A DNA stretch of 64,000 bases from Cyanidioschyzon merolae (GCA_000091205.1 AP006495.2); one strand, 5' to 3'; shown: positions 1,583-40,457, counted from the stretch's first letter. Notes: generated from the sequence alone by a model not told the origin. Numbers and translations: made by a program.

Positions 1583-4500
1583 CCCAACGCGCCTTCCATG
1601 GAGGATGCACCGAGCAGAGCGTTGGCATCCACCTTGGAACCGAGCGACCTAATGCGATCGAACAATGTCGTATCGGATCATGGAGAATCCACGGTAACTG
1701 CGGATGCACCAGAGTGCACTGCCCGGCAACATCCATCTGCGGAGGCAACAAGAGAGGCACCAGACTCGGCTGACGCTTCATCGTCTTCAGTCGGTGATGA
1801 ACTTCGCGAGCCGCAGTTGCCGTCCGATACGGGATTGCTTGCATCCCCTGCTGCGACCTCGGAAGCCTCAACGGAACCACACGATGCACCGCAGCTCTCC
1901 GAGACCGGAGCAAGCGGTATCGCGACCACCACCGGCACCACGGAAGCATTGGCGCTCGACTGGGACGCTGCCCCTTTTCTGGAAATCTTCGAGCGTTCCT
2001 CCTGGATCCAAGTATTTCGCCAAGTACGCATTCGACTCCGTCGGGTTTGGATCCGGCTAGAAGCGAGTCCGCAACCGAACGGAAAAGATCACAAAGATAT
2101 GGCTCCAGCGCCGTACGCCCTGGAATGCTCCCTCGAAGACGCGTACCTTGAACCTCCGGATGAAGCGTTTCGTGCACAGGTCCTGGAACGCTGTGGGCTA
2201 TCGCTTCCCGAACTGGATCCATCCGAGGATGCCAGCTACGAAGAATCGGTATTTCTCTGGAGAGGGTGTTGTTTCCGAGGCTTGCGCATACGCTTCGCCG
2301 TGGACGATGAACGCTGGTTACCGTTGCTCGCACAGACACCACAACAGAGTCGAGGTGGTAGCGCGTCCGACGAGCCACCGCTGCCACCACTCCAAGAGTC
2401 CGACTGGGACTGGCTGTGGCGACGACTCCGCCATCGTGAACCTACGAGCTACCTCATTGCAGATCTGCTTCTATTAGCTCGTCTGGGAATCAACATGGCC
2501 GCCTTTGAGGATACCACGCGCTACACAATGGATGCACTCCACCAGAACAGTCTTCCTTTCGCTGCTGGTGCTGGTGCTGGTGCTGGTGCTGCCGCTGCCG
2601 ATACCACCACCATTCGGTTGCATGCAAGTATACCGTATGTGCACGGTCACCTGACGTTAGCGACGTTGTTCAGTCTCACGCGACTAGCTGAACAGCTGGC
2701 GCATTGGTTTTGGCGTGCTTATCTCCATCAAAAGTACGACGTACCTGCGGAACGACCTCGGCGCCTATCACCGTATCGTTTGGCGAGACTTCCGGGTCGG
2801 AGGCATCCCGCTCGGGCCTGGTGGCGCTACGCGGTTCGCTGTGTCCTGGGCCTACGTCGACGGCAACGAAGAGAGGCCGCACTGCCGGCTGCATTACCGG
2901 AACTCTCTCGTTGGTTACGACTTCAGTTATTGTACTTTGCGCTCTACCGCGAACTGGTGTACGGGGAATCTGCACCGAAGCAGCTCTTCGAGTGCGTCAT
3001 GTCCTCGCTGGATGCCGTCGGGGGTCATCGGGTGTGTCCTCGGGAGAATAACGGAGCGCTGCGCTTTCGGAGCGTTTCACAACCTGGATCCGGATTGAAC
3101 CTTGCGGACGATTCCGAGACAGCGCTTCCACGGCGACTGGTCGCTCAACTACGGTATCTGGAAGAGCGCATGCCTCTAGAGCAGCTGCTGAATGCACGAC
3201 TTCTTGTTCATGTGCATGAGCGTGCAAAACGCCTCCAAGCGGAAGCAGCGAACGAGAAACGTTCGTCTTCCTGGTCCAGAGGGCACATCTGGCGCCTGGC
3301 CAGCACTTCATGGCAATGGATTCGGTCGACTGTGAGCTCCTGGTTCGGGACGTATCAGCTCTACCAGGTGGTGAAGCAGCGACGCGAGTCACGCCGAGCG
3401 CTGCGCTGGATAGCCACTGCAACAGAGGCTGCCTCGGATGGAAGCGCGAGAGCCGAGCACTTGTCTCAGGCTTTGGTGACGCAGGCATCCATGGATAGTG
3501 GAGCAGGTGCGCGTGCTCCTGTCAGTGCTGCGACTCGTGCGCCTGCTACGGACGTGTCTGCTCCTGCTTCCGTGGATCCGGGTGCTGCTGCTGCTGCTGG
3601 TGCTGTCGGTGCCGATCACCAGGATATGGACGAGTTCCTGCAACGTCTTCGTGATGCGTTTCATGAGGCCTGGGTGGCAGTCTTCGGCGAGAGCGGGCGC
3701 GATGCTGTTCTTTTCACCGAGTCCCTGGTGGAGGCATTCGAGACCAGCGTACCGCTGGATCTAGAGATGCAGTTGGAGCAAGCCTCGTGGACGCTGCACG
3801 GCATCGGCGACAGCGAGCGTCTGCCAGGCGACTTGCCGTCTTGCACACGAGCTGCCAGCATGCCGAAGAACAACAACAACGAGAACAAGAACAAGAACAA
3901 GAGCAGCGTGTCGGCATCGCTGCTGACGCTACGCCTCCAGGGCATATGGTGGCGTCTGCACGACCTCGGGACGACGAGTCCGCTGCAGACGCAAGTCGTT
4001 GTCCGCGACTGGGAGGTTATCCCAGACGTCGTGCGCGTGCAAGCCCAGACAGAGAGCGTCTTTTACGCTGACCTGCCGAGTACAGCCCCGAGCGCTGCGC
4101 TCTACATGCGGTTGCAAGTTCAGAAACGGGTCGATCGCCGCAACTCCACCACCGACGCGTTACCGCTGCTGCATGAGAATGGGAACGGAGGTGTTCCCGG
4201 TGAGCCTGCTGCACCAGGCACCGCACAGACTCCGTTGCAACCGAGAGAAACCGCCTCGCATGCGACGGGTTGCAACTCGCTTGCCTCCAGTACGGAGACC
4301 GAGTCAGCCTCTGCGCTCTATGTTCGCCTGCAGCCGCTGCGAGTACATTTGCAGACGGAGCAACTGGTGCCACTGCTGTCGTTGCTCCAAGAGTGGCGGG
4401 CTTGTATTCCGCGGTCGCTTGCCGAACGAATCGCTGGCCTCATGCAGGAGCATCCCAGTCGAGCGCGACATCGAGCCATAGAGGCACTGCAACTGGAACA

Positions 4501-29733: not shown

Positions 29734-31052
29734 CACATGTCGCGGATGTGTTTTCGACGCAAAACAGTGGATGGTGATCTGCACTGGAAAACGCTTTGGC
29801 GATGACGTCGCTCATATTCGACCTAGAGTCATGATCTGATCGGGTTTGTCCAAGTACCTGCGTGGCCCGCACCTGATGTGTAGGATTCCGAGTCCGGAAC
29901 GATGTCGAGTGCATCGAAAGAGAAAAAGATGCGTTTCGGTGCCGTTTTCTTGTGATTCGACAGCGTTGGCGCTCAAGTGACGGCTGTCGTGGATGTGCAA
30001 GCTGTTCCGCTCTCCTGCAGGCGGTGTCAACTCCAGGTATCTGCTTCTAGTCTATCAAGTCAGTTTTGTCTCGCCCTCGCTGCGGATGATAGCATGAGAA
30101 CGAATTCACGATGTAATGTGTTTTATAGACCGTCCATCATTTGCCCAGAGGATATAGATTCCTCACTTAACGGTACAAGGAGGAATGCATTCGTCCTTTA
30201 GTTCAGTCATACCACGGTACTCTGATGGTTGAGGAGCACTGAACGGAAGACGTAGATGTGCTCTGCGTCAAAAAATGGTATTATCGAAGCTTGCCTGCGG
30301 CCAATGATGGAAAATGACTGGCGAATCCCTACCGGCAAGCGAAAGCGACGATGGTAGCCGCCATAGGCGTCCTTGTTTCTCAACAGCTTGTTCTTTTGGT
30401 CCTGAAAGCACGGGCATCCAGTTGCAAAAAAGAGTCCTATTTCAATCACGGCCATCTTCCACGGAAATAGCGGTGACAGCGTTCCTGTAACGTTGCGATC
30501 CGGATGAAACACAGGGACGTAGGTTTTTGTTTCCAGTCGATGAGAATTTCTTCGGGTGCAACGGTCGGAGTGCGTACGGGTATTCGCGGTGAAGCGAGCC
30601 CGTTGTATGTGAGATCGAACGTGAAGAGATCGACGACACCATCTGTTCTCGACGTGGTAAATTCATTTGACGGCCTCAGTTTGGCTCGTAGAGAAGGCTC
30701 ATCGAATAGCAACAACCACTTTGTCGAATCATTGAAGACTTTTGTCTGACGTCTGACGACGTCTTTCTTTTGGACAAAGTGGTATTCCACCATTCTCCTT
30801 GTGTTCGAGCTTTTGCGAATTCTATGTGGATAGAGCTGCTTTTCATACTTCTGTACGCTCCATGGTTGAATTCCGTTTTAGGATTCATTTCTATTGTGAA
30901 ATATAATGATCGCTCCACTGGGCGGATCGCTGATGCTCTCAGCACACGGTGACACACTGGAAGCATATTTCGCCTTTCTTGCGCAAGTGCTTCTCCCTCC
31001 GGGCAGGTTTCCACGCAAGGGCGTAAAGAAGTAGGTTCATTTTAAAAAAATA

Positions 31053-31628
31053 ATGGATGAATTCGAATGCGCATTTCACAGGGTCGAGACTGAGAGAGCG
31101 AGAAGACAGCAGAGCGCACCGGCGATAGAAACGCACGGAGAGATGACAGAGCACCAAATGATGTCGAGGGCGCGAGTTCGGGCAATTCTTACATTGATGA
31201 GTTCCACCAGCGGGAATAAATGCATAGAGTTCGCGAACCCAGACTTCAATGCCGCCATCAACATCAGACAATATCTGGTGTTGAAGACGAGACCCAGGGA
31301 GCTGACGCGATGTAGCTCTGTGGGGCAGCCTCTCAGGGTCGTACTGCGTCCGAATGAAAAAAGAAATCGATATCAGGAGCTCCGTCAAAATAGACCCGAA
31401 CGCGTCTGCGGGAGAGTATTAATTTACCCCAGAAAGAACAGAAACTATGTCGCTCAACAGAACAAGCGCGCGTCGAGTGGAACAGCGTTATCGCAACGCG
31501 GGAGTCGCAACACTACCATTTCCGTGCATTCGCGTGTCGGAGCACCGTTCGAGTCATATATTCTTGTGGTTTCGCTCGCGCTAGGTGTGAGTCATGAGGT
31601 CCTGCAGTCAGTTAGACTGAGGACTTGA
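31053..31628 (+). pseudogene. Truncated C-terminal fragment of a Fanzor1/TnpB-like RuvC nuclease (RuvC-II remnant to RuvC-III)
   Basis: MDEFECAF (degenerate vDEfrTSk.C) ... CIEFANPDFNAAINIRQYLVLKTRPRELTR matches the RDxNAAxNI RuvC-III signature. It is paralogous to 35615-35893(-), ...VGFVNRDFNAAIIIRRCAVMENRPPKLTR. There is no upstream N-terminal half and no CxxC zinc finger. Confidence 0.5.
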
Positions 31629-33375: not shown

Positions 33376-33977
33376 GACGTCTACAGATCCCAGCACGCGA
33401 ATACTTCGTGTCCCAGTCGCACGCGCTGACCCTCGCGCGCAGCTAAGACTTGCCTCGTCGCAAGTGCAGGGTACCGTAAAGCGTTGCGTGATTCCCGTCG
33501 CAGCTCGAATGCTGCCGGACGTGCTCAGAAGCATATTGTAGAACAGGTCGTGTTCTGGTCCAGGTGCTGCGGTTGCTTCGTCGATGCCCGGAGAACGGAA
33601 GCGCTCCTGGCAACGCGTGCCTCGTTGGGCATCAGCAAACATCAGGGAAACCTCGTGCGCGCGCTCGCGTTATTACCAAGGCGCATTGCCGCTATGCACG
33701 ACTCGGATAGAGGTGGAACCGATGAAGTGGACCCATCATCATCCAGCGACGGCAATTGTTCCATGAACGGAATCGAGGTACGGACACGGTAGATCTATTT
33801 GCGTATGCGCGGTATCGCTGATGAACGAAACCTCGCACAGTGGACGCGTCTGGTACCCATACGTTCGCTCGGAATTCAAGCCACGTTGTTTGCATGTCCA
33901 AGCGTGGTTTCTGCATGAGTGCGGACTCTGCCCCCCAGGTATTCGCGAATACTGTGGTACCGACCAGTGCGGAGCCA

Positions 33978-34276
33978 TTTTTTTCATGGACAAAACGTTT
34001 ACTTAGGCCAGCGTTCTCCGATTATGCGCTTTTTTCTTTTCTTGCTTTTTTTTGTGTTTTTTCAGTGCACGGTGAGGTATCCATCAAACCCCCTACCTCC
34101 AAGTTACATGACCCATACTTCGTCTCGGATATTCTGGTCGTTTCATACGTCTTATCGTGTGTGCCTAGTGCCTGCCGAAAGCGGCGACAGCAATAGCGCC
34201 TGTAGCGCCGGTGCGGTCGCTGCACGGAGACAGAACGGCGTTGCCGTACCACACACAGAGGGCGTCGGCTCGAGGC
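33978..34276 (+). repeat. Left copy of an approximately 300-bp direct repeat (about 75% identical to 38083-38373)
   Basis: Shared blocks include acgtttacttaggccagcg, a T-run, gtatccatcaaacccc, tccaagtt, catacgt...tatcgtgtg, cgttgccgtaccaca and ggctcgaggc. Confidence 0.7.
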
Positions 34277-34411
34277 AGTGCGGGGCAATGCCAGCGCAAG
34301 GCGGTGCCGATTTGCATGGCTCCTGACGCTAGACAACCGGAGCGCTGTTGCGGTCCGAGCAGCAGCACAACGCGGCCTTCACATATCAAGAGACCTATGA
34401 GGCAGCTGTTT

Positions 34412-35491
34412 TCAGGGGTTCAAATCATCTTGAATAATCTCGTCACCAAGGCCTTGCAGGCTCTCATCCTGATTCGTCACTAATCGCTTGAGTTCCAGGA
34501 AGCGCTGGCATTTGAACATAAGCGCAGGCGTCATCATGTCAAGCGCTGCGCCCCGTCCACTTCGACGTTGAGACTCCCCCAAAGTCACCGCTTCAATATC
34601 AGATGCTCGGGGACGTCTGCCCATTCGCGTATAGAAGCCATCGCTCCAGAGTTTGAGGTCCATAGCGAGTGCCGTGAACTGCCGTTTCAGCCGATCGAAG
34701 GCGTTCTCTTCTGAGGTGTCACTGTTAGTGCGGGCCTCGGTGCCTGCACGGTCTCCTCTTCGCTTTACCCAATGGCGGAGCATCGCTCGCCGAATCTTTT
34801 CTCGGGTCGCCTCAGAATGCTTCTTGCCGCGATTCCAGGCCGGTTTTCCCGACAAGGCCTGACGCATTCGTGCTCGAAACGCCGGATCTTGCCAACGTTT
34901 AGATAGGGATGCAGCTTGCTTTGCGATCGTCCCGTTCGACCGCCTGTTCTGCAAAAGCCGAGCGCGCAGCAGTGGGTCCGTCCAGCGTAATCGCATCGTC
35001 TCTGCACGGGTGCTGCTCGGCGTTCGTTTGCGTGCAGGTGGTGCCGTCGGGGACTTCGATTCCGGGTCAAGCGGCTCTGGTTCTGTGCACGCGGTTACTG
35101 CTGCAGCTGTTGGAGTAGACCGCCTAGCGTTCACAGCTTGTCGCTTCTCGTTCACGTCGTCAGGCACTGGAAAAAGCTGCCCAGAGAATACCACCCCAGT
35201 CGATTTACAGTACGTTTCAGGTGTCAGTGCCGTTGTGGCTGTGCCCACTACGTTTGCTAGGATATTGTGTGCAATTCGCGAGCTCCTGAAACCGAGGCTC
35301 TGTAAACTCGAGAGAGCTTCGTTCGCGTGTGGCACCCAACGCTGACCCTTTTGCAGCCCAAGGGTCAGGGCGGACGTCACGTCACGCGTTGTGTGTAACT
35401 TGCAGCGCAGGGGAACCGCTTTACGACCGCAGCGCTCCATTTTGCAATTGCTGAAAGCAGAACAAATGAACATCACCGCAAAGGCACACAA
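34412..35491 (-). CDS. Protein with tandem NUMOD3-type DNA-binding motifs (homing-endonuclease-associated module); function unknown
   Basis: Repeats RWTDPLLRARLLQ, RWQDPAFRARMRQALSGKPAWNRGKKHSEATREKIRRAM match the NUMOD3 consensus G.kHSeETk.KIs. The protein is basic and S/T/P-rich. I could not recognise a GIY-YIG or other catalytic core. Confidence 0.4.
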   Translation of the reverse strand: MCAFAVMFICSAFSNCKMERCGRKAVPLRCKLHTTRDVTSALTLGLQKGQRWVPHANEALSSLQSLGFRSSRIAHNILANVVGTATTALTPETYCKSTGVVFSGQLFPVPDDVNEKRQAVNARRSTPTAAAVTACTEPEPLDPESKSPTAPPARKRTPSSTRAETMRLRWTDPLLRARLLQNRRSNGTIAKQAASLSKRWQDPAFRARMRQALSGKPAWNRGKKHSEATREKIRRAMLRHWVKRRGDRAGTEARTNSDTSEENAFDRLKRQFTALAMDLKLWSDGFYTRMGRRPRASDIEAVTLGESQRRSGRGAALDMMTPALMFKCQRFLELKRLVTNQDESLQGLGDEIIQDDLNP

Positions 35492-35614
35492 AACGCCGTT
35501 CTAAACTCGAACGACGCCGACCGTCTACAGTAGTGGCGAGAAGCCCGCCCTTGACAAGAAATCTCCAACTGACGTGCGGACGCCTCCTGGTCTTGTTCGA
35601 CCGGCCACCTACTA

Positions 35615-37922
35615 CTATTTCCAATTTTTTTCATATAGTTCGACTTTAAGAGATTCTCCTACAAAATTCTCTCGTGTCAACTTTGGGGGTCTGTTCTCCA
35701 TCACCGCACATCTCCTTATAATGATTGCGGCGTTAAAGTCCCGGTTCACAAACCCCACACGTTTCTTGCCATTGATTGTACTTTCTAATGCAAGTAGTCC
35801 ACGAACTTTCGCTCTCCTTTCCATTCGCTCTTCCGTCAGCGCTCCGTACTTTGCTATATCCTCAGGGCTCCGCTGGCCCTTTTCTATCTCCACTCTCTGA
35901 AGTGTACAACCTGGCTCGTGGTGTGTGTAGCACCTTCAGATCCCATCTATCGGTATCGGAACGAAACGCCGTGCACACTCCTTGTGCGTTCTGGTCGTTG
36001 GAGCTGGCGTAGTCCCTTTTTGGGGCTTCCAGCGCCCTGCCCCGTATGCTACTACGAGCCTCTGACTTTCATCCTCATTCAGGGCGCTCAACTGATTGAA
36101 AAAATTCGCGAACGCCCGCTGTTTCCCACAGTATAGATTCATTCGCAGATGAGCCCACCGGGGCTGGGTATACTCTTTCCACAGCGACTCCCAGTGAGCA
36201 GGGCGAACTTTCATGAATTTCCGAAACGCTTGACAGTCTGCTCCGCGGCTCGTCACCTCGCCCAAAGCTTCCAGGTGATCCTTCATTCCTGCATTCTACG
36301 TAACGATTTTCTTCCTTGCATTCATTATACCGGATTCTCGATGGTACCGTGCTCTCGAGAATCTCAAAAGACGCATGTCTTTCTGACGCAAGTTGCCGGC
36401 AGTACCATCTTCCGCACGTTTGGGTACTGCGATGGTTATGATATTTGTGTTTCCGGGGTCCGCGCCAACGACAAAGTCGTTCTCATGCACTTCCTGCGTG
36501 GTAGGATCCGCCTCCTTCTCATCTTCATGATTCGCCGCGCCTACGAAAAGGTCGTTCCCCTCCACCTCCTGCGTCACAGGATCCGCCTCTTTGTTTTATT
36601 CATGCTTCGCCGAGGTCGAAGCCGAGGGCGGGACAGGGCGATTTGTCTTCGACTGCCGATAGTGTACGCACATGGCTACCCAATCGGTTCCGATCATCCC
36701 AGTGAATACCTTTTGTTTGCTCAGTCGGAGACGTTTAAAATCGAAGATACTCTTCCTGTACGTCTCTCGGTTTTCACCTATGAACTCCTCCCTGCTAACA
36801 TTGAACTCGGGACTGATCTCCTTCATGATGCCGTAAAGGACTCTGGGGTCGATAGTCACAAAATGCGCCTTGATGTTGCACAACTGAATGACGTTGAAGC
36901 GCTTGCCCATTAGGAAAGCCTTCCGTCTCTCCCACTCTTCATTCCATTTCCTCAATCAGCTTCATCTCCGCCTTCCGTTCGAGTTTCCGGTTCAGGAATA
37001 CGAAATGGCGCAGAATGAGGCGATAGTATCTTTCCTCATCTTTTTTCAACTCTGATATCTTGTCTGCTGGATTCGCCAGCCCCAAGAATGCACGATGCTC
37101 TTGTACAGCCGCACAGATTACAGAAGCTTCATTCGTGCTCTTGTTTGACACCTTCTTCCCAACAAATTCGATATCCTGTTCATGCTTGCGATCGTTCGTG
37201 ATGCCATTGATAATCGCCTATACTCCGTTGCGAGACAGGCCCGAGCACAGCGCAAATACGGCGCGTATCATGAAACTTTCGAGGTTCATAGTCAAATGCT
37301 TCTTCAGGTTCGTGATGTACTTCATCGCCCGATAGTCGTAAATATCCACGTGACCCTTGTATCGAGTACCATCGAAGCTGTAAAAGGGATTTTTTTCGTG
37401 GAGGGCGTGAACTCGCTCATTTTCCCTCCGCGCTTCCGCTGTGCCAAGCATCAGGTGCCGACTAAAATTCTTATCGAAAAATCCTCCGGAATCTCGACCG
37501 TTTCCATGTGCGTCACCTCGCGATACATCTCCCGCACCAAATGCATCAGTCCTGAGGACGCCTTGACAATACTCTTGGAGTACGAGTCGATACTTTTTCG
37601 ATAGCGTGTCGCAACTTTTCCCTGTAGGGATCCTTGATATGTCCAAGAAGAAAGGTTTTCACCACCCTCTCGTCGTACAGCCGTCTTTCTTGGCGCCTTC
37701 GACGGAGGACCTTCCCCCTTCGGTTCTTCTTCTCTTCCTTTTCTTCCGGACTCGGCACTGTTTTTTTCTGGCAGCCGGCGACCGTTGGCCTCCAGGATCG
37801 TCGACTTGCTTTTTCATAACTTTCCTTTTTTTAAGTTCTTTTGAAAAATAACGCTCTTTGAACCCTTCTGTTATATACCGCGAAAAACACTTGAATACAC
37901 TTGTTTGAGGTTCCAAAAACAA
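35615..37922 (-). pseudogene. Degenerate Fanzor1/TnpB-like RNA-guided RuvC endonuclease gene (about 770-aa span broken into at least 8 frame segments)
   Basis: K/R-rich, NLS-like N-terminus (KELKKRKVMKK...RKKQCRVRKKRKRRR) at 37659-37922. Ruv[19 protein letters not shown] at 36296-36577. RuvC-II block LVVAYGAGRWKPQKGTTPAPT at 35936-36286. RuvC-III NRDFNAAIIIRRC at 35615-35893. Multiple frameshifts and stops lie between the segments. Confidence 0.55.
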
Positions 37923-38082
37923 ATGAACTGAATGACTGTACCTGGCTACGACCTCAACGAAAATACAAATTCTACATGAGATCTACATGCTAGAGATCAG
38001 GATCATGTTTCCCTTCAATGGCGGCATGCGCGTCGCGCCAGTTGACTGCCCGACCTCCGAGGTGCGCTCACTAAGCGCGATT

Positions 38083-38373
38083 CTTTTTTTCTCATTGACA
38101 GAACGTTTACTTAGGCCAGCGGCCTCCGATTGAGCGCTTTTTCTTCTCATACTATTTTTCTGTTTTTGTAGTGCGCGGTAAAGTATCCATCAAACCCCGT
38201 ACTTCCAAGTTCCGTTGCCCATACTTTTTCTCGGATATACTGGCCGTCTCATACGTTCTATCGTGTGCTGAGTACCTGACTCGTTCGTCCGCATTAGCGC
38301 CCATAGCGCCTGCGCCGCCGCTGTACGGAGATAGCACGACGTTGCCGTACCACAAAGGGCATCGGCTCGAGGC
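38083..38373 (+). repeat. Right copy of the approximately 300-bp direct repeat
   Basis: See the left copy. Its minus-strand ORF 38152-38382 is similar to 34022-34336 (YETTRISETKYGSCNLEVGGLMDT vs YETASISEKKYGQRNLEVRGLMDT). Confidence 0.7.
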
Positions 38374-39176
38374 CTGCTTCATCCGACGTAGAATCGGGTC
38401 TCGTCCTCAGTTTGTGCTCGGACAGTCTGCGGATGCAGGCTTGTCTTCGCTGCACGACACGCTGGAGAAACTTGGCTGTTAGGATATATCATGGGAGCCG
38501 CCTCTTTCCTTCGCGATCATGCATGGAATGCGTCGTTGTCGGTTGGCAATGCGGGTTTGTGTTTGACACCCACCACAGTGGGTAGGCGTAGAGAGCACTA
38601 AACCCGTGTGCGCATCCGATTCGCTCGACCTTCCGCCTAGAAGGTAGAGTGTGAGTTTGTTCGCCACTTATGAGCGCTGAGGCTCGGTTAGCGGACCATC
38701 ACATGCCAGTGCTACACTCAAAGTGAGTGTCCGGCCTTTGACTATCACGCTGCTGCCCAGCTGCTGCTGTCCTTCAAGGAGCTCGCTGTGCTCCTGCTTC
38801 CAGCGCGGGCACTGTAAGCCTAAATATGGCAGCGTCCGGGGGTCTCGTTTCCACAGCAGGGACAGTGTGATTCCCAGTGCGTTTCCAGTGTCCCTATACG
38901 GCTTAGAGGCGGTGCTGCTAGCCAGAAGCCGGCAACGTAGATTTGCGTCTTCTGGATACACTGCCGCACAACAGCGCACGCCGAGATCGACCACCGCCGT
39001 AGCCTCCACCAGTCGTACTGCAGCCGATGATGCTCGCACGCTGGCCCTGAGCGGCATCTCGATCTCTTTTGTGAGAAAGATACGGGTCACTGCTGTACAG
39101 CGATGACCGGAGCTCGCTAGGGAGTCTTATAGGATAGGTTGATGTTCCGACTTTCTTCGCATTCTTTTTTCTCGAG

Positions 39177-40457
39177 ATGACTAAAGAGTGTAAAGCGAAT
39201 CTGGCTCGGACGAGCGCACGTCACGAGCAGCTCGCATCGAAGCCGTTTGGTTTCTGTTACACCGTGCTGCGGGAGGAGAACTCGCACCAAGCGCGTGACG
39301 AGCTTTCCGATGCAATTCGAACCCATTTTGTGAACGCGAAAGTCAACGAGCGGTCCATACCTTCGCGATTTTTCTATGACGACGCTGGAACAGCGCTGTA
39401 TGAACGCATCACCTGCACTGAAGACTACTATCTCACGCGATGTGAACGGGAGATTTTCCGTAAATACTGCGATCGGATATTGAACATCGCAGTTGGACTG
39501 GACGAAGATGCACCTATTCGATCGCACTCTCCCAATGAGAGAGCCTTACATATCATCGAACTGGGCGCTGGCGACGGACACAAAACAGCAGTGCTGGTGC
39601 AGCGTGCTCTGCAACGTGGCCTGCACATCACGTACCGTCCCATTGACATCAGTGAGCGCGCCATGACGGACTGTGCGGAGCGCATCCTCGCAACGCTGAG
39701 CGACCCCGAGAATGGTCATCAGCGTTTGGAGCATTCGAGTGTTGAAGCGCAGTTCACCTTCCATGGTATTGTGGGTGATTTCTTCGAAGGACTTGGATAT
39801 GCGCTGCGCGCACCAGGACGGCGTCTGCAGAACCCTGTTGAGGATCGACTACTGGCAAACGCGGGCAACGCGGGGTATGGTGCAGCTCCCGAGTCAGCTC
39901 ATGAGCATGCTCGGCACTTAGTCATGTTCATTGGATCTTCGATTGGCAACTTTGATCCCACGAACGCTATAGCATTCTGTAAGCAGGTTCGGAGCTTGCT
40001 GCAGCCTGCCAGGGATCACTTTCTTGTCGGGTTCGATCTGCGAAAACCTTATGCAATCATGCACCGAGCGTATAGTGACCGTGAGGGTATTACTGCAGAA
40101 TTTAACCGCAACTTGCTCCGTCGTGTGAACAGAGAACTTGGATCCAATTTCAATCCGGCGAAGTTTGAACATTTTGCCCAGTACAATGTTCGACTCGGGG
40201 CGATGGAGAGCTTCCTTGTCGCCACCGAGCATATGCGTATTGTTTTTCCAAATCTGGCGATGGACACGACGGCGTTGCCGACTGGGAACGAAATCGCGAT
40301 AGAGCTGCGCCCCTGGGAAGCCATCCATACGGAGTACAGCTGGAAGTATACTTTAGAGGACATTTCTGCGCTGGCACAGAAAGCTGGCTTTAGTAGGATT
40401 GCTGCGAATTTCTTTGATTCGAAGAACGGGTTTGTGGACAGTATCTTCGCTCCGTAG
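39177..40457 (+). CDS. EgtD-type SAM-dependent histidine N-alpha-methyltransferase (Methyltransf_33), standalone
   Basis: PSRFFYDDAGTALYERITCTEDYYLTRCEREIF, ELGAGDGHKT, FIGSSIGNF, DLRKPYAIMHRAYSDREGITAEFNRNLLRRVNRELGSNF...FEH and EYSWKY match M. smegmatis EgtD motif by motif. There is no fused EgtB/sulfoxide-synthase domain. Confidence 0.75.
   Translation: MTKECKANLARTSARHEQLASKPFGFCYTVLREENSHQARDELSDAIRTHFVNAKVNERSIPSRFFYDDAGTALYERITCTEDYYLTRCEREIFRKYCDRILNIAVGLDEDAPIRSHSPNERALHIIELGAGDGHKTAVLVQRALQRGLHITYRPIDISERAMTDCAERILATLSDPENGHQRLEHSSVEAQFTFHGIVGDFFEGLGYALRAPGRRLQNPVEDRLLANAGNAGYGAAPESAHEHARHLVMFIGSSIGNFDPTNAIAFCKQVRSLLQPARDHFLVGFDLRKPYAIMHRAYSDREGITAEFNRNLLRRVNRELGSNFNPAKFEHFAQYNVRLGAMESFLVATEHMRIVFPNLAMDTTALPTGNEIAIELRPWEAIHTEYSWKYTLEDISALAQKAGFSRIAANFFDSKNGFVDSIFAP

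Follow-up and report, generated by a model that had tools for sequence, protein, structure and literature searches.

Positions 33,978 to 38,373 of a 64,000-nucleotide (nt) stretch of Cyanidioschyzon merolae DNA (GCA_000091205.1 AP006495.2; this whole stretch is called the window below) contain one host gene, CMM182C, the remains of a Fanzor1-type RNA-guided nuclease gene and two tails of a retrotransposon without long terminal repeats (non-LTR), that is, a long interspersed element (LINE). All read on the minus strand. Four long open reading frames of the window and the NUMOD3 frame are exact matches to annotated C. merolae 10D proteins (BAM81033-BAM81040), and between CMM182C and CMM183, a histidine N-methyltransferase gene (39177-40457), the annotation has nothing. 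The GC content is 0.47-0.53 across 35-38 kb versus 0.55-0.57 in the flanks, which agrees with the low internal GC remarked upon in an initial annotation made from the sequence. That annotation read the locus as a possibly undescribed, pseudogenised element in which a Fanzor1 nuclease and a NUMOD3 DNA-binding protein are bracketed by direct repeats of about 300 bp. We find instead that there is no Fanzor-NUMOD3 composite element here and no new kind of mobile element. In our reading, to which we give a probability of about 0.9, the locus is a patchwork in which one host gene lies among three relics of repeats already known from C. merolae, each independent of the others (Table 1).

Table 1. Position of the features of the locus in the window.
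Feature	Position	Strand	Basis and remarks
Target-site duplication (TSD) of the left LINE tail, 13 bp	33965-33977 and 34277-34289		CAGTGCGGAGCCA / CAGTGCGGGGCAA, 11/13
Solo 5'-truncated non-LTR retrotransposon 3' end, ~300 nt	33978..34276	-	poly(A) 33978-33984; sharp edge shared with other copies
CMM182C (BAM81035.1, 353 amino acids (aa), ATG at 35473)	34412..35473	-	exact match to annotated C. merolae protein
Decayed CMe-1A copy	35494..38080	-	consensus positions about 648/660 to 3169; without 5' TE-N2 module
Candidate omegaRNA scaffold	35527..35618	-	conserved and foldable; overlaps the 3' end of the open reading frame (ORF)
Fanzor1 pseudogene	35553..37817	-	six frame segments in tblastn with CMe-1 (734 aa); interrupted by three in-frame stops; RuvC-II without its glutamate
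CMe-1 aa 1-16	37817-37770	-	tblastn
CMe-1 aa 15-75	37782-37600	-	tblastn
CMe-1 aa 76-122	37600-37460	-	tblastn
CMe-1 aa 116-293	37481-36948	-	tblastn
CMe-1 aa 295-729	36943-35564	-	tblastn; holds the three in-frame stops
CMe-1 aa 709-734	35630-35553	-	tblastn
75-nt (25-aa) tandem duplication	36460..36612	-	Tandem Repeats Finder: period 75, 2.0 copies, 79% matches; just N-terminal to the RuvC-I strand
Second 5'-truncated copy of the same retrotransposon, ~865 nt	38084..38950	-	ORF2 C-terminal zinc-knuckle region; poly(A) 38084-38090, directly against the left end of the Fanzor

The nuclease relic belongs to CMe-1A, the one Fanzor1 family listed for C. merolae (Bao & Jurka 2013, Mob DNA 4:12), whose consensus DNA (3169 bp) and protein (734 aa) we took from the supplements of that paper. 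In blastn, consensus positions 660-2196 align with window 38067-36535 at 84.4% identity and positions 2117-3145 with window 36539-35515 at 87.9%; the relic is also ~82% identical to an intact metagenome copy (locus L001, 7718-10432). It begins with TCGCGCTTAGTGAGCGCACC at 38080 and terminates in ...GAACGGCG at 35494. CMe-1A was described with ~150 copies, each ~80% identical to a ~3-kb consensus, without terminal inverted repeats, with undetermined TSDs and of unknown class; its 5' 635 bp is a separate repeat, TE-N2_CMe (Bao & Jurka 2013), which Repbase holds as unclassified at ~70 copies. It is also the transcribed 3.2-kb interspersed repeat of which Nozaki et al. (2007) counted 253 copies, 5% of the genome, with a truncated ORF weakly similar to WSV486 of white spot syndrome virus; the same authors counted 26 non-LTR retrotransposons. 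The family is therefore already known, and the window copy shows the ~80% DNA identity to its consensus along the element. What it does not carry is the TE-N2 module: consensus positions 1-659 have no aligned counterpart upstream of the window unit, and a LINE 3' tail lies at that position in the opposite orientation, which makes this copy a 5' variant of the family.

The decay of the nuclease gene is plain when the published CMe-1 protein is aligned to the relic by tblastn: it is covered over its full length, aa 1-734, by six minus-strand segments of 64-76% identity each. This places the start at an ATG near 37817 and the stop, by its position in the consensus, at ~35553; the initial annotation had the strand right but ran the gene from 37922 to 35615. 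Its count of at least eight pieces is fair, but these are not all separate frames, as a three-frame read reveals that 36955-35615, the 3' 1.3 kb, stays in a single frame with stops in it (TAA 36598, TAG 36298 and TGA 35938) and that only the region upstream shifts frame several times. The lysine/arginine-rich N-terminus and the quoted motifs are present where they had been placed. RuvC-I (Asp codon 36460-36458) and RuvC-III, NRDFNAA (Asp codon 35740-35738), are there, and RuvC-II has decayed from VDEFRTS to IDGI*R, with loss of the glutamate at 35944-35942. The gene is dead: its frame shifts at least five times, three nonsense codons interrupt it and RuvC-II has lost its glutamate. Its ancestor probably encoded an RNA-guided RuvC nuclease of ~734 aa. 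We considered a reassigned stop codon and dropped the idea, since all three stop codons occur, frameshifts occur too and the neighbouring host genes read normally.

Just before RuvC-I, the 25-aa duplicated unit has a consensus of about EADPxTQEVxDNDLVVDAxKHEExK, and the beta-strand that stands before the RuvC-I aspartate is copied within it. Its copy number differs among family members, with two units in the window and several more in the metagenome proteins P0060 and P0061.

The assignment of the family to Fanzor1, rather than to the short prokaryotic TnpB, rests on sequence profiles and not on fold. The frame-joined C-terminal 446 aa of the relic match 177 unnamed metagenome proteins at 60-79% identity, one of which, P0060 (752 aa), has intact RuvC motifs including FVNRDFNAAINIRKC. 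A profile search of 1.84 billion representatives returned 1321 representative relatives at E <= 1e-3, many of them 580-740 aa long, and in a 37-sequence alignment (P0060 and 36 relatives at 28-39% identity) the residues D484, E656 and D725 are invariant. The family thus has the RuvC D-E-D triad, of which the window copy keeps both aspartates and has the glutamate mutated. Against all PDB chains, the family profile (A3) matched significantly only Fanzor1 proteins, those of Parasitella parasitica (9CF0, 7.9e-20), Spizellomyces punctatus (8GKH, 6e-10) and Guillardia theta (9CER, 3.8e-5), in alignments that span all three RuvC motifs. These matches were obtained only once distant representatives had joined the profile; a shallow profile of close relatives (A2) gave no Fanzor match in the PDB, and Pfam found no TnpB domain in single ORF fragments or in the frame-joined C-terminus. 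For a zinc-ribbon/TNB domain between RuvC-II and RuvC-III, Pfam PF07282 gave sub-threshold matches only (E = 5e-4 to 0.09 in relatives and 0.23 in P0060).

The direct repeats are real but they do not bracket one element. Positions 33978-34276 and 38086-38373 are 78.7% identical over 300 nt (E = 1e-63) and are the sole two copies within the 64-kb window; the homology of the right one to other copies of the repeat runs on to ~38945-38950. The right copy is 83.6% identical to L001 6401-7262, the two being homologous over ~860 nt, and the length that it shares with other loci carrying such a LINE tail upstream of the Fanzor is 863-866 nt. When both window copies are aligned with L001, they share a sharp edge, TTTTTTTCATGGACAAAACGTTTAC, beyond which the flanks are unrelated in all three. 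This edge is the poly(A) end of a non-LTR retrotransposon, because longer copies (L039) continue upstream into a reverse transcriptase (Pfam RVT_1, E = 4e-19) and because the right copy encodes the ORF2 C-terminus. In fact, the minus strand of the LINE segment encodes a C-x2-C...ET..H...CP...R zinc-knuckle tail, and aa 589-680 of the LINE ORF2 correspond to window 38841-38572 at 76% in tblastn. Together with the variable 5' truncation of the copies (289 to >1344 nt) and the 13-bp TSD of the left one, these are the marks of a non-LTR retrotransposon. The private TSD, which flanks the left copy exactly, excludes that copy as the terminus of a larger element; for the right fragment we found no TSD. 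Hence the 'direct repeats' are two independent 5'-truncated LINE insertions of unequal length. The LINE 3' tail also shares ~220 nt, at 74-78% identity, with part of TE-N2_CMe (CMe-1A consensus 60-282); the corresponding positions are 34092-34275 and 38176-38398.

The NUMOD3 protein is the product of an ordinary host gene. CMM182C does contain the motif proposed for it (Pfam PF07460, E = 1.5e-6, 28.5 bits against a cut-off of 20.4), and NUMOD3 is all that a Pfam scan at E <= 1 detects in it; no GIY-YIG or HNH core or other nuclease domain appears there, nor in its orthologues. These orthologues are found in Cyanidiococcus yangmingshanensis (54% identity over the C-terminal 223 aa) and in two other Cyanidiales assemblies. 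In Cyanidiococcus and in GCA_041825655.1 the gene order is acetyl-CoA transporter, Methyltransf_33, NUMOD3 gene, NOL9/CLP1, CitMHS; of the third assembly only the upstream neighbours are visible, its contig stopping just past the NUMOD3 gene. None of the three loci has Fanzor or LINE homology. In these assemblies ~0.5-1.4 kb separates the NUMOD3 gene from its upstream neighbour, versus 3.7 kb between CMM182C and CMM183 in C. merolae, where the insertions account for the greater distance. CMM182C is a lineage-conserved, single-copy, syntenic host gene of the Cyanidiales, without a nuclease core.

A scan of hot-spring metagenomes gave 347 confirmed relatives of the nuclease and 80 Fanzor loci with their flanks. 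By tblastn, CMM182C is present at 0/80 of them. The intact copy L001 sits between a 2-oxoglutarate-Fe(II) oxygenase gene and a GRAM/VASt gene, with neither repeat bracket nor NUMOD3 gene. For a novel composite of Fanzor1 and NUMOD3 protein within terminal direct repeats it speaks that both ORFs lie on the same strand, only about 20-120 nt apart, and are flanked by two repeats in direct orientation. The idea is hardly credible now: the presumed partner accompanies the nuclease at none of the 80 loci and stands in conserved synteny without it in three other Cyanidiales assemblies, the presumed termini are retrotransposon 3' tails of ~865 and 300 nt, the left of which has a TSD to itself, and there is neither a recurring set of repeats and cargo nor one TSD around the whole. 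A megablast of the 4.5-kb region against a phage database gave no match. Three short metagenome contigs with CMM182C (L003, L004 and L088) end at 33978 and at ~35520-35580, where the LINE tail and the Fanzor 3' end have their edges; such breaks fit these two pieces being multi-copy in those genomes.

In the patchwork that we propose, a CMe-1A Fanzor1 copy occupies the intergenic space between CMM183 and CMM182C, on the minus strand from 38080 to 35494, with a ~865-nt 5'-truncated, poly(A)-ended LINE 3' end in the same orientation directly upstream of its left end. Downstream of CMM182C, another tail from this retrotransposon family, ~300 nt long and likewise 5'-truncated, inserted separately and made its own TSD. 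The Cyanidiales gene is flanked by these insertions merely by chance.

The Fanzor right end lies only 21 nt upstream of the annotated CMM182C ATG, and with this spacing the promoter or 5' untranslated region of the gene must lie in, or read through, the relic. Could the relic have been retained for host expression, its 3' end serving as a putative promoter or leader of CMM182C? The insertion is fixed across the sampled C. merolae-like strains and the repeat family is transcribed (Nozaki et al. 2007), which would suit such an exaptation. We consider it unlikely, given that the relic has decayed no differently from the other copies (84-88% identity to the consensus) and that fixation in close strains is expected of any old neutral insertion.

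A different question is whether the upstream LINE piece and the Fanzor unit came together. Across loci the boundaries of the Fanzor unit are sharp at both ends: the left end starts at TCGCGCTCAGTGAGCGCACC (window 38080) and the 3' end reads ...GCCACTACTGTACAC...GTCGTTCGACTTTCGAACGGCG (window 35494). Only one locus (L001/L005/L006) still has an ORF of more than 750 aa in which all three motifs are present. At nearly every locus one of a few other repeats lies upstream, joined at the same left-end position and in graded lengths. The first is the LINE tail with its poly(A), oriented as the Fanzor gene, in pieces of 289, 567, 865 and >1344 nt in the window and at least five other independent loci; the others are an unnamed repeat (45-640 nt), a repeat matching TE-N2_CMe (150-680 nt) and a second unnamed repeat (about 1080 nt). 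The junction of LINE poly(A) and Fanzor, ...ATGAAAAAAAGAA|TCGCGC..., falls at the same nucleotide (window 38080-38092) in at least six independent loci (L008, L042/43, L055, L038/39, L072 and L006).

A fixed 3' end with a variable 5' extent recalls 5' truncation. One might then envision that 38950-35494 arrived as a single chimeric insertion, through retro-mobilisation by the LINE (read-through, or 5' transduction with 5' truncation) or through some other 3'-anchored copying, the shared junction and the graded modules at one point being its best arguments. Several results speak against this. Neither poly(A) nor TSD was found at the 3' end of the Fanzor unit; a search around the Fanzor units and their upstream modules at 18 loci gave no convincing TSD, and none for the window Fanzor either. 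The 3' tails of LINE and Fanzor unit are not significantly similar, as SINE-like (short interspersed element) parasitism would require. A neighbour-joining tree of the Fanzor units is star-like and uninformative, the groups defined by the upstream modules not being monophyletic, and the sample of loci is biased, having been chosen by Fanzor homology. We thus regard a joint arrival as rather improbable. The more general proposal, that CMe-1A units propagate as a 3'-anchored module to which LINE tails, TE-N2_CMe and the two other repeats become joined at one left-end point, seems to us doubtful to the same degree; if true, it would fit mobilisation of Fanzor1 by a non-LTR retrotransposon, or another one-ended copying not described for Fanzor elements.

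Some further details of the ends were observed. The left end carries a near-perfect palindrome, GCGCTCAGTGAGCGC, at 38061-38080, and the right end a hairpin, CGTTCGA-CTT-TCGAACG, at 35494-35512, with a variant AACGTTTTTCTTTTGAAAGACG in other copies. These are reminiscent of the subterminal hairpins of IS200/IS605, but a TnpA-like gene is absent. At L030 (~2290-2330) the 3' region switches after ...GGAGACGTTTTGTC to AATGAAAAA, the LINE terminal sequence replacing the rest of the Fanzor tail. A second relic lies in the window on the plus strand (30041-31346). Its part 31059-31346 encodes CMe-1 aa 612-706 at 55% identity, with FANPDFNAAINIRQ, plus the element 3' region, and it is preceded by a dispersed repeat of ~1 kb and unassigned type (30041-31050), 67-73% identical to pieces in L023, L038/39, L040, L053 and L066. 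The same pairing of repeat and Fanzor 3' end recurs in L038 8195-9528, and the second relic may be a non-autonomous derivative that has kept a Fanzor 3' end.

By analogy with characterised Fanzor1/TnpB systems, the conserved segment at the 3' end of the nuclease gene is a plausible omegaRNA scaffold, and it falls where the initial annotation expected one. A closing stem, CAGUAGUAG.GUGGC/GCCACUACUG, and inner hairpins recur in single-sequence folds of the last ~130 nt; the window copy folds at -38.5 kcal/mol (z = -1.97) and the best copy reaches z = -4.2. Over 47 non-redundant copies, 84% of cells are paired versus 36-60% in slid controls, a pairing that is suggestive only, since the consensus itself supplied the structure scored and neutral decay is under way in most copies. 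Rfam gave no match for the segment.

A number of results weigh against the reading proposed here, for the candidate RNA, for the protein and for the history of the locus. Covariation in the 47 copies is weak (10 double changes versus 4.7 in shuffles, 6/500), RNAalifold on their 3' ends gives a weak consensus of -7.3 kcal/mol with no covariation term, and hand-built structures display marginal covariation only. An AlphaFold2 model of P0060, built with 18 close relatives, has a mean predicted local distance difference test score (pLDDT) of 31 and is unusable. The contexts of copies come from metagenome contigs of close relatives and not from the whole C. merolae genome. Every C. merolae-like metagenome strain sampled carries the insertions and an empty-site allele was seen in none, so whatever is said of the order in which the Fanzor copy and the adjacent LINE piece inserted is inferred.

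As a find, the relic matters little: it is one more decayed copy from a repeat family that was reported in 2007 and identified as Fanzor1 in 2013. What the locus adds is modest. The first ~220 nt of the unclassified TE-N2_CMe turn out to match the 3' tail of a C. merolae non-LTR retrotransposon. The CMe-1A architecture of a fixed 3' end and variable 5' modules is documented over 80 loci and bears on how this Fanzor1 family moves. The conserved 3' stem-loop, finally, offers a concrete candidate omegaRNA in the genetically tractable C. merolae.

How do these pieces compare with known systems? CMM182C resembles NUMOD3 homing endonucleases (I-TevI-like GIY-YIG, HNH) in its significant NUMOD3 motif and repeated W.DP..RAR units, and differs from them in that Pfam detects no GIY-YIG, HNH or LAGLIDADG core. 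The two window tails are plain LINE tails on the minus strand, whereas in TE-N2/CMe-1A the homologous segment is reversed relative to the Fanzor gene. The window copy has the species, the 734-aa Fanzor1 ORF, the motifs and the 3' end of the CMe-1A consensus, but it is inactivated and lacks the 635-bp TE-N2_CMe module. With the Fanzor1 proteins SpuFz1 (8GKH), P. parasitica Fz1 (9CF0) and G. theta Fz1 (9CER), the family shows profile-level homology over RuvC-I (DPG), RuvC-II (DEFRT) and RuvC-III (NRD..N..N), and it shares with characterised Fanzor1 nucleases a length of ~730-750 aa and a K/R-rich N-terminus. Identity to them is only ~30% or lower, the C. merolae protein being known from its sequence and its omegaRNA being a candidate, and, unlike characterised Fanzor1 proteins, the C. 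merolae family carries a variable 25-aa tandem repeat before RuvC-I.

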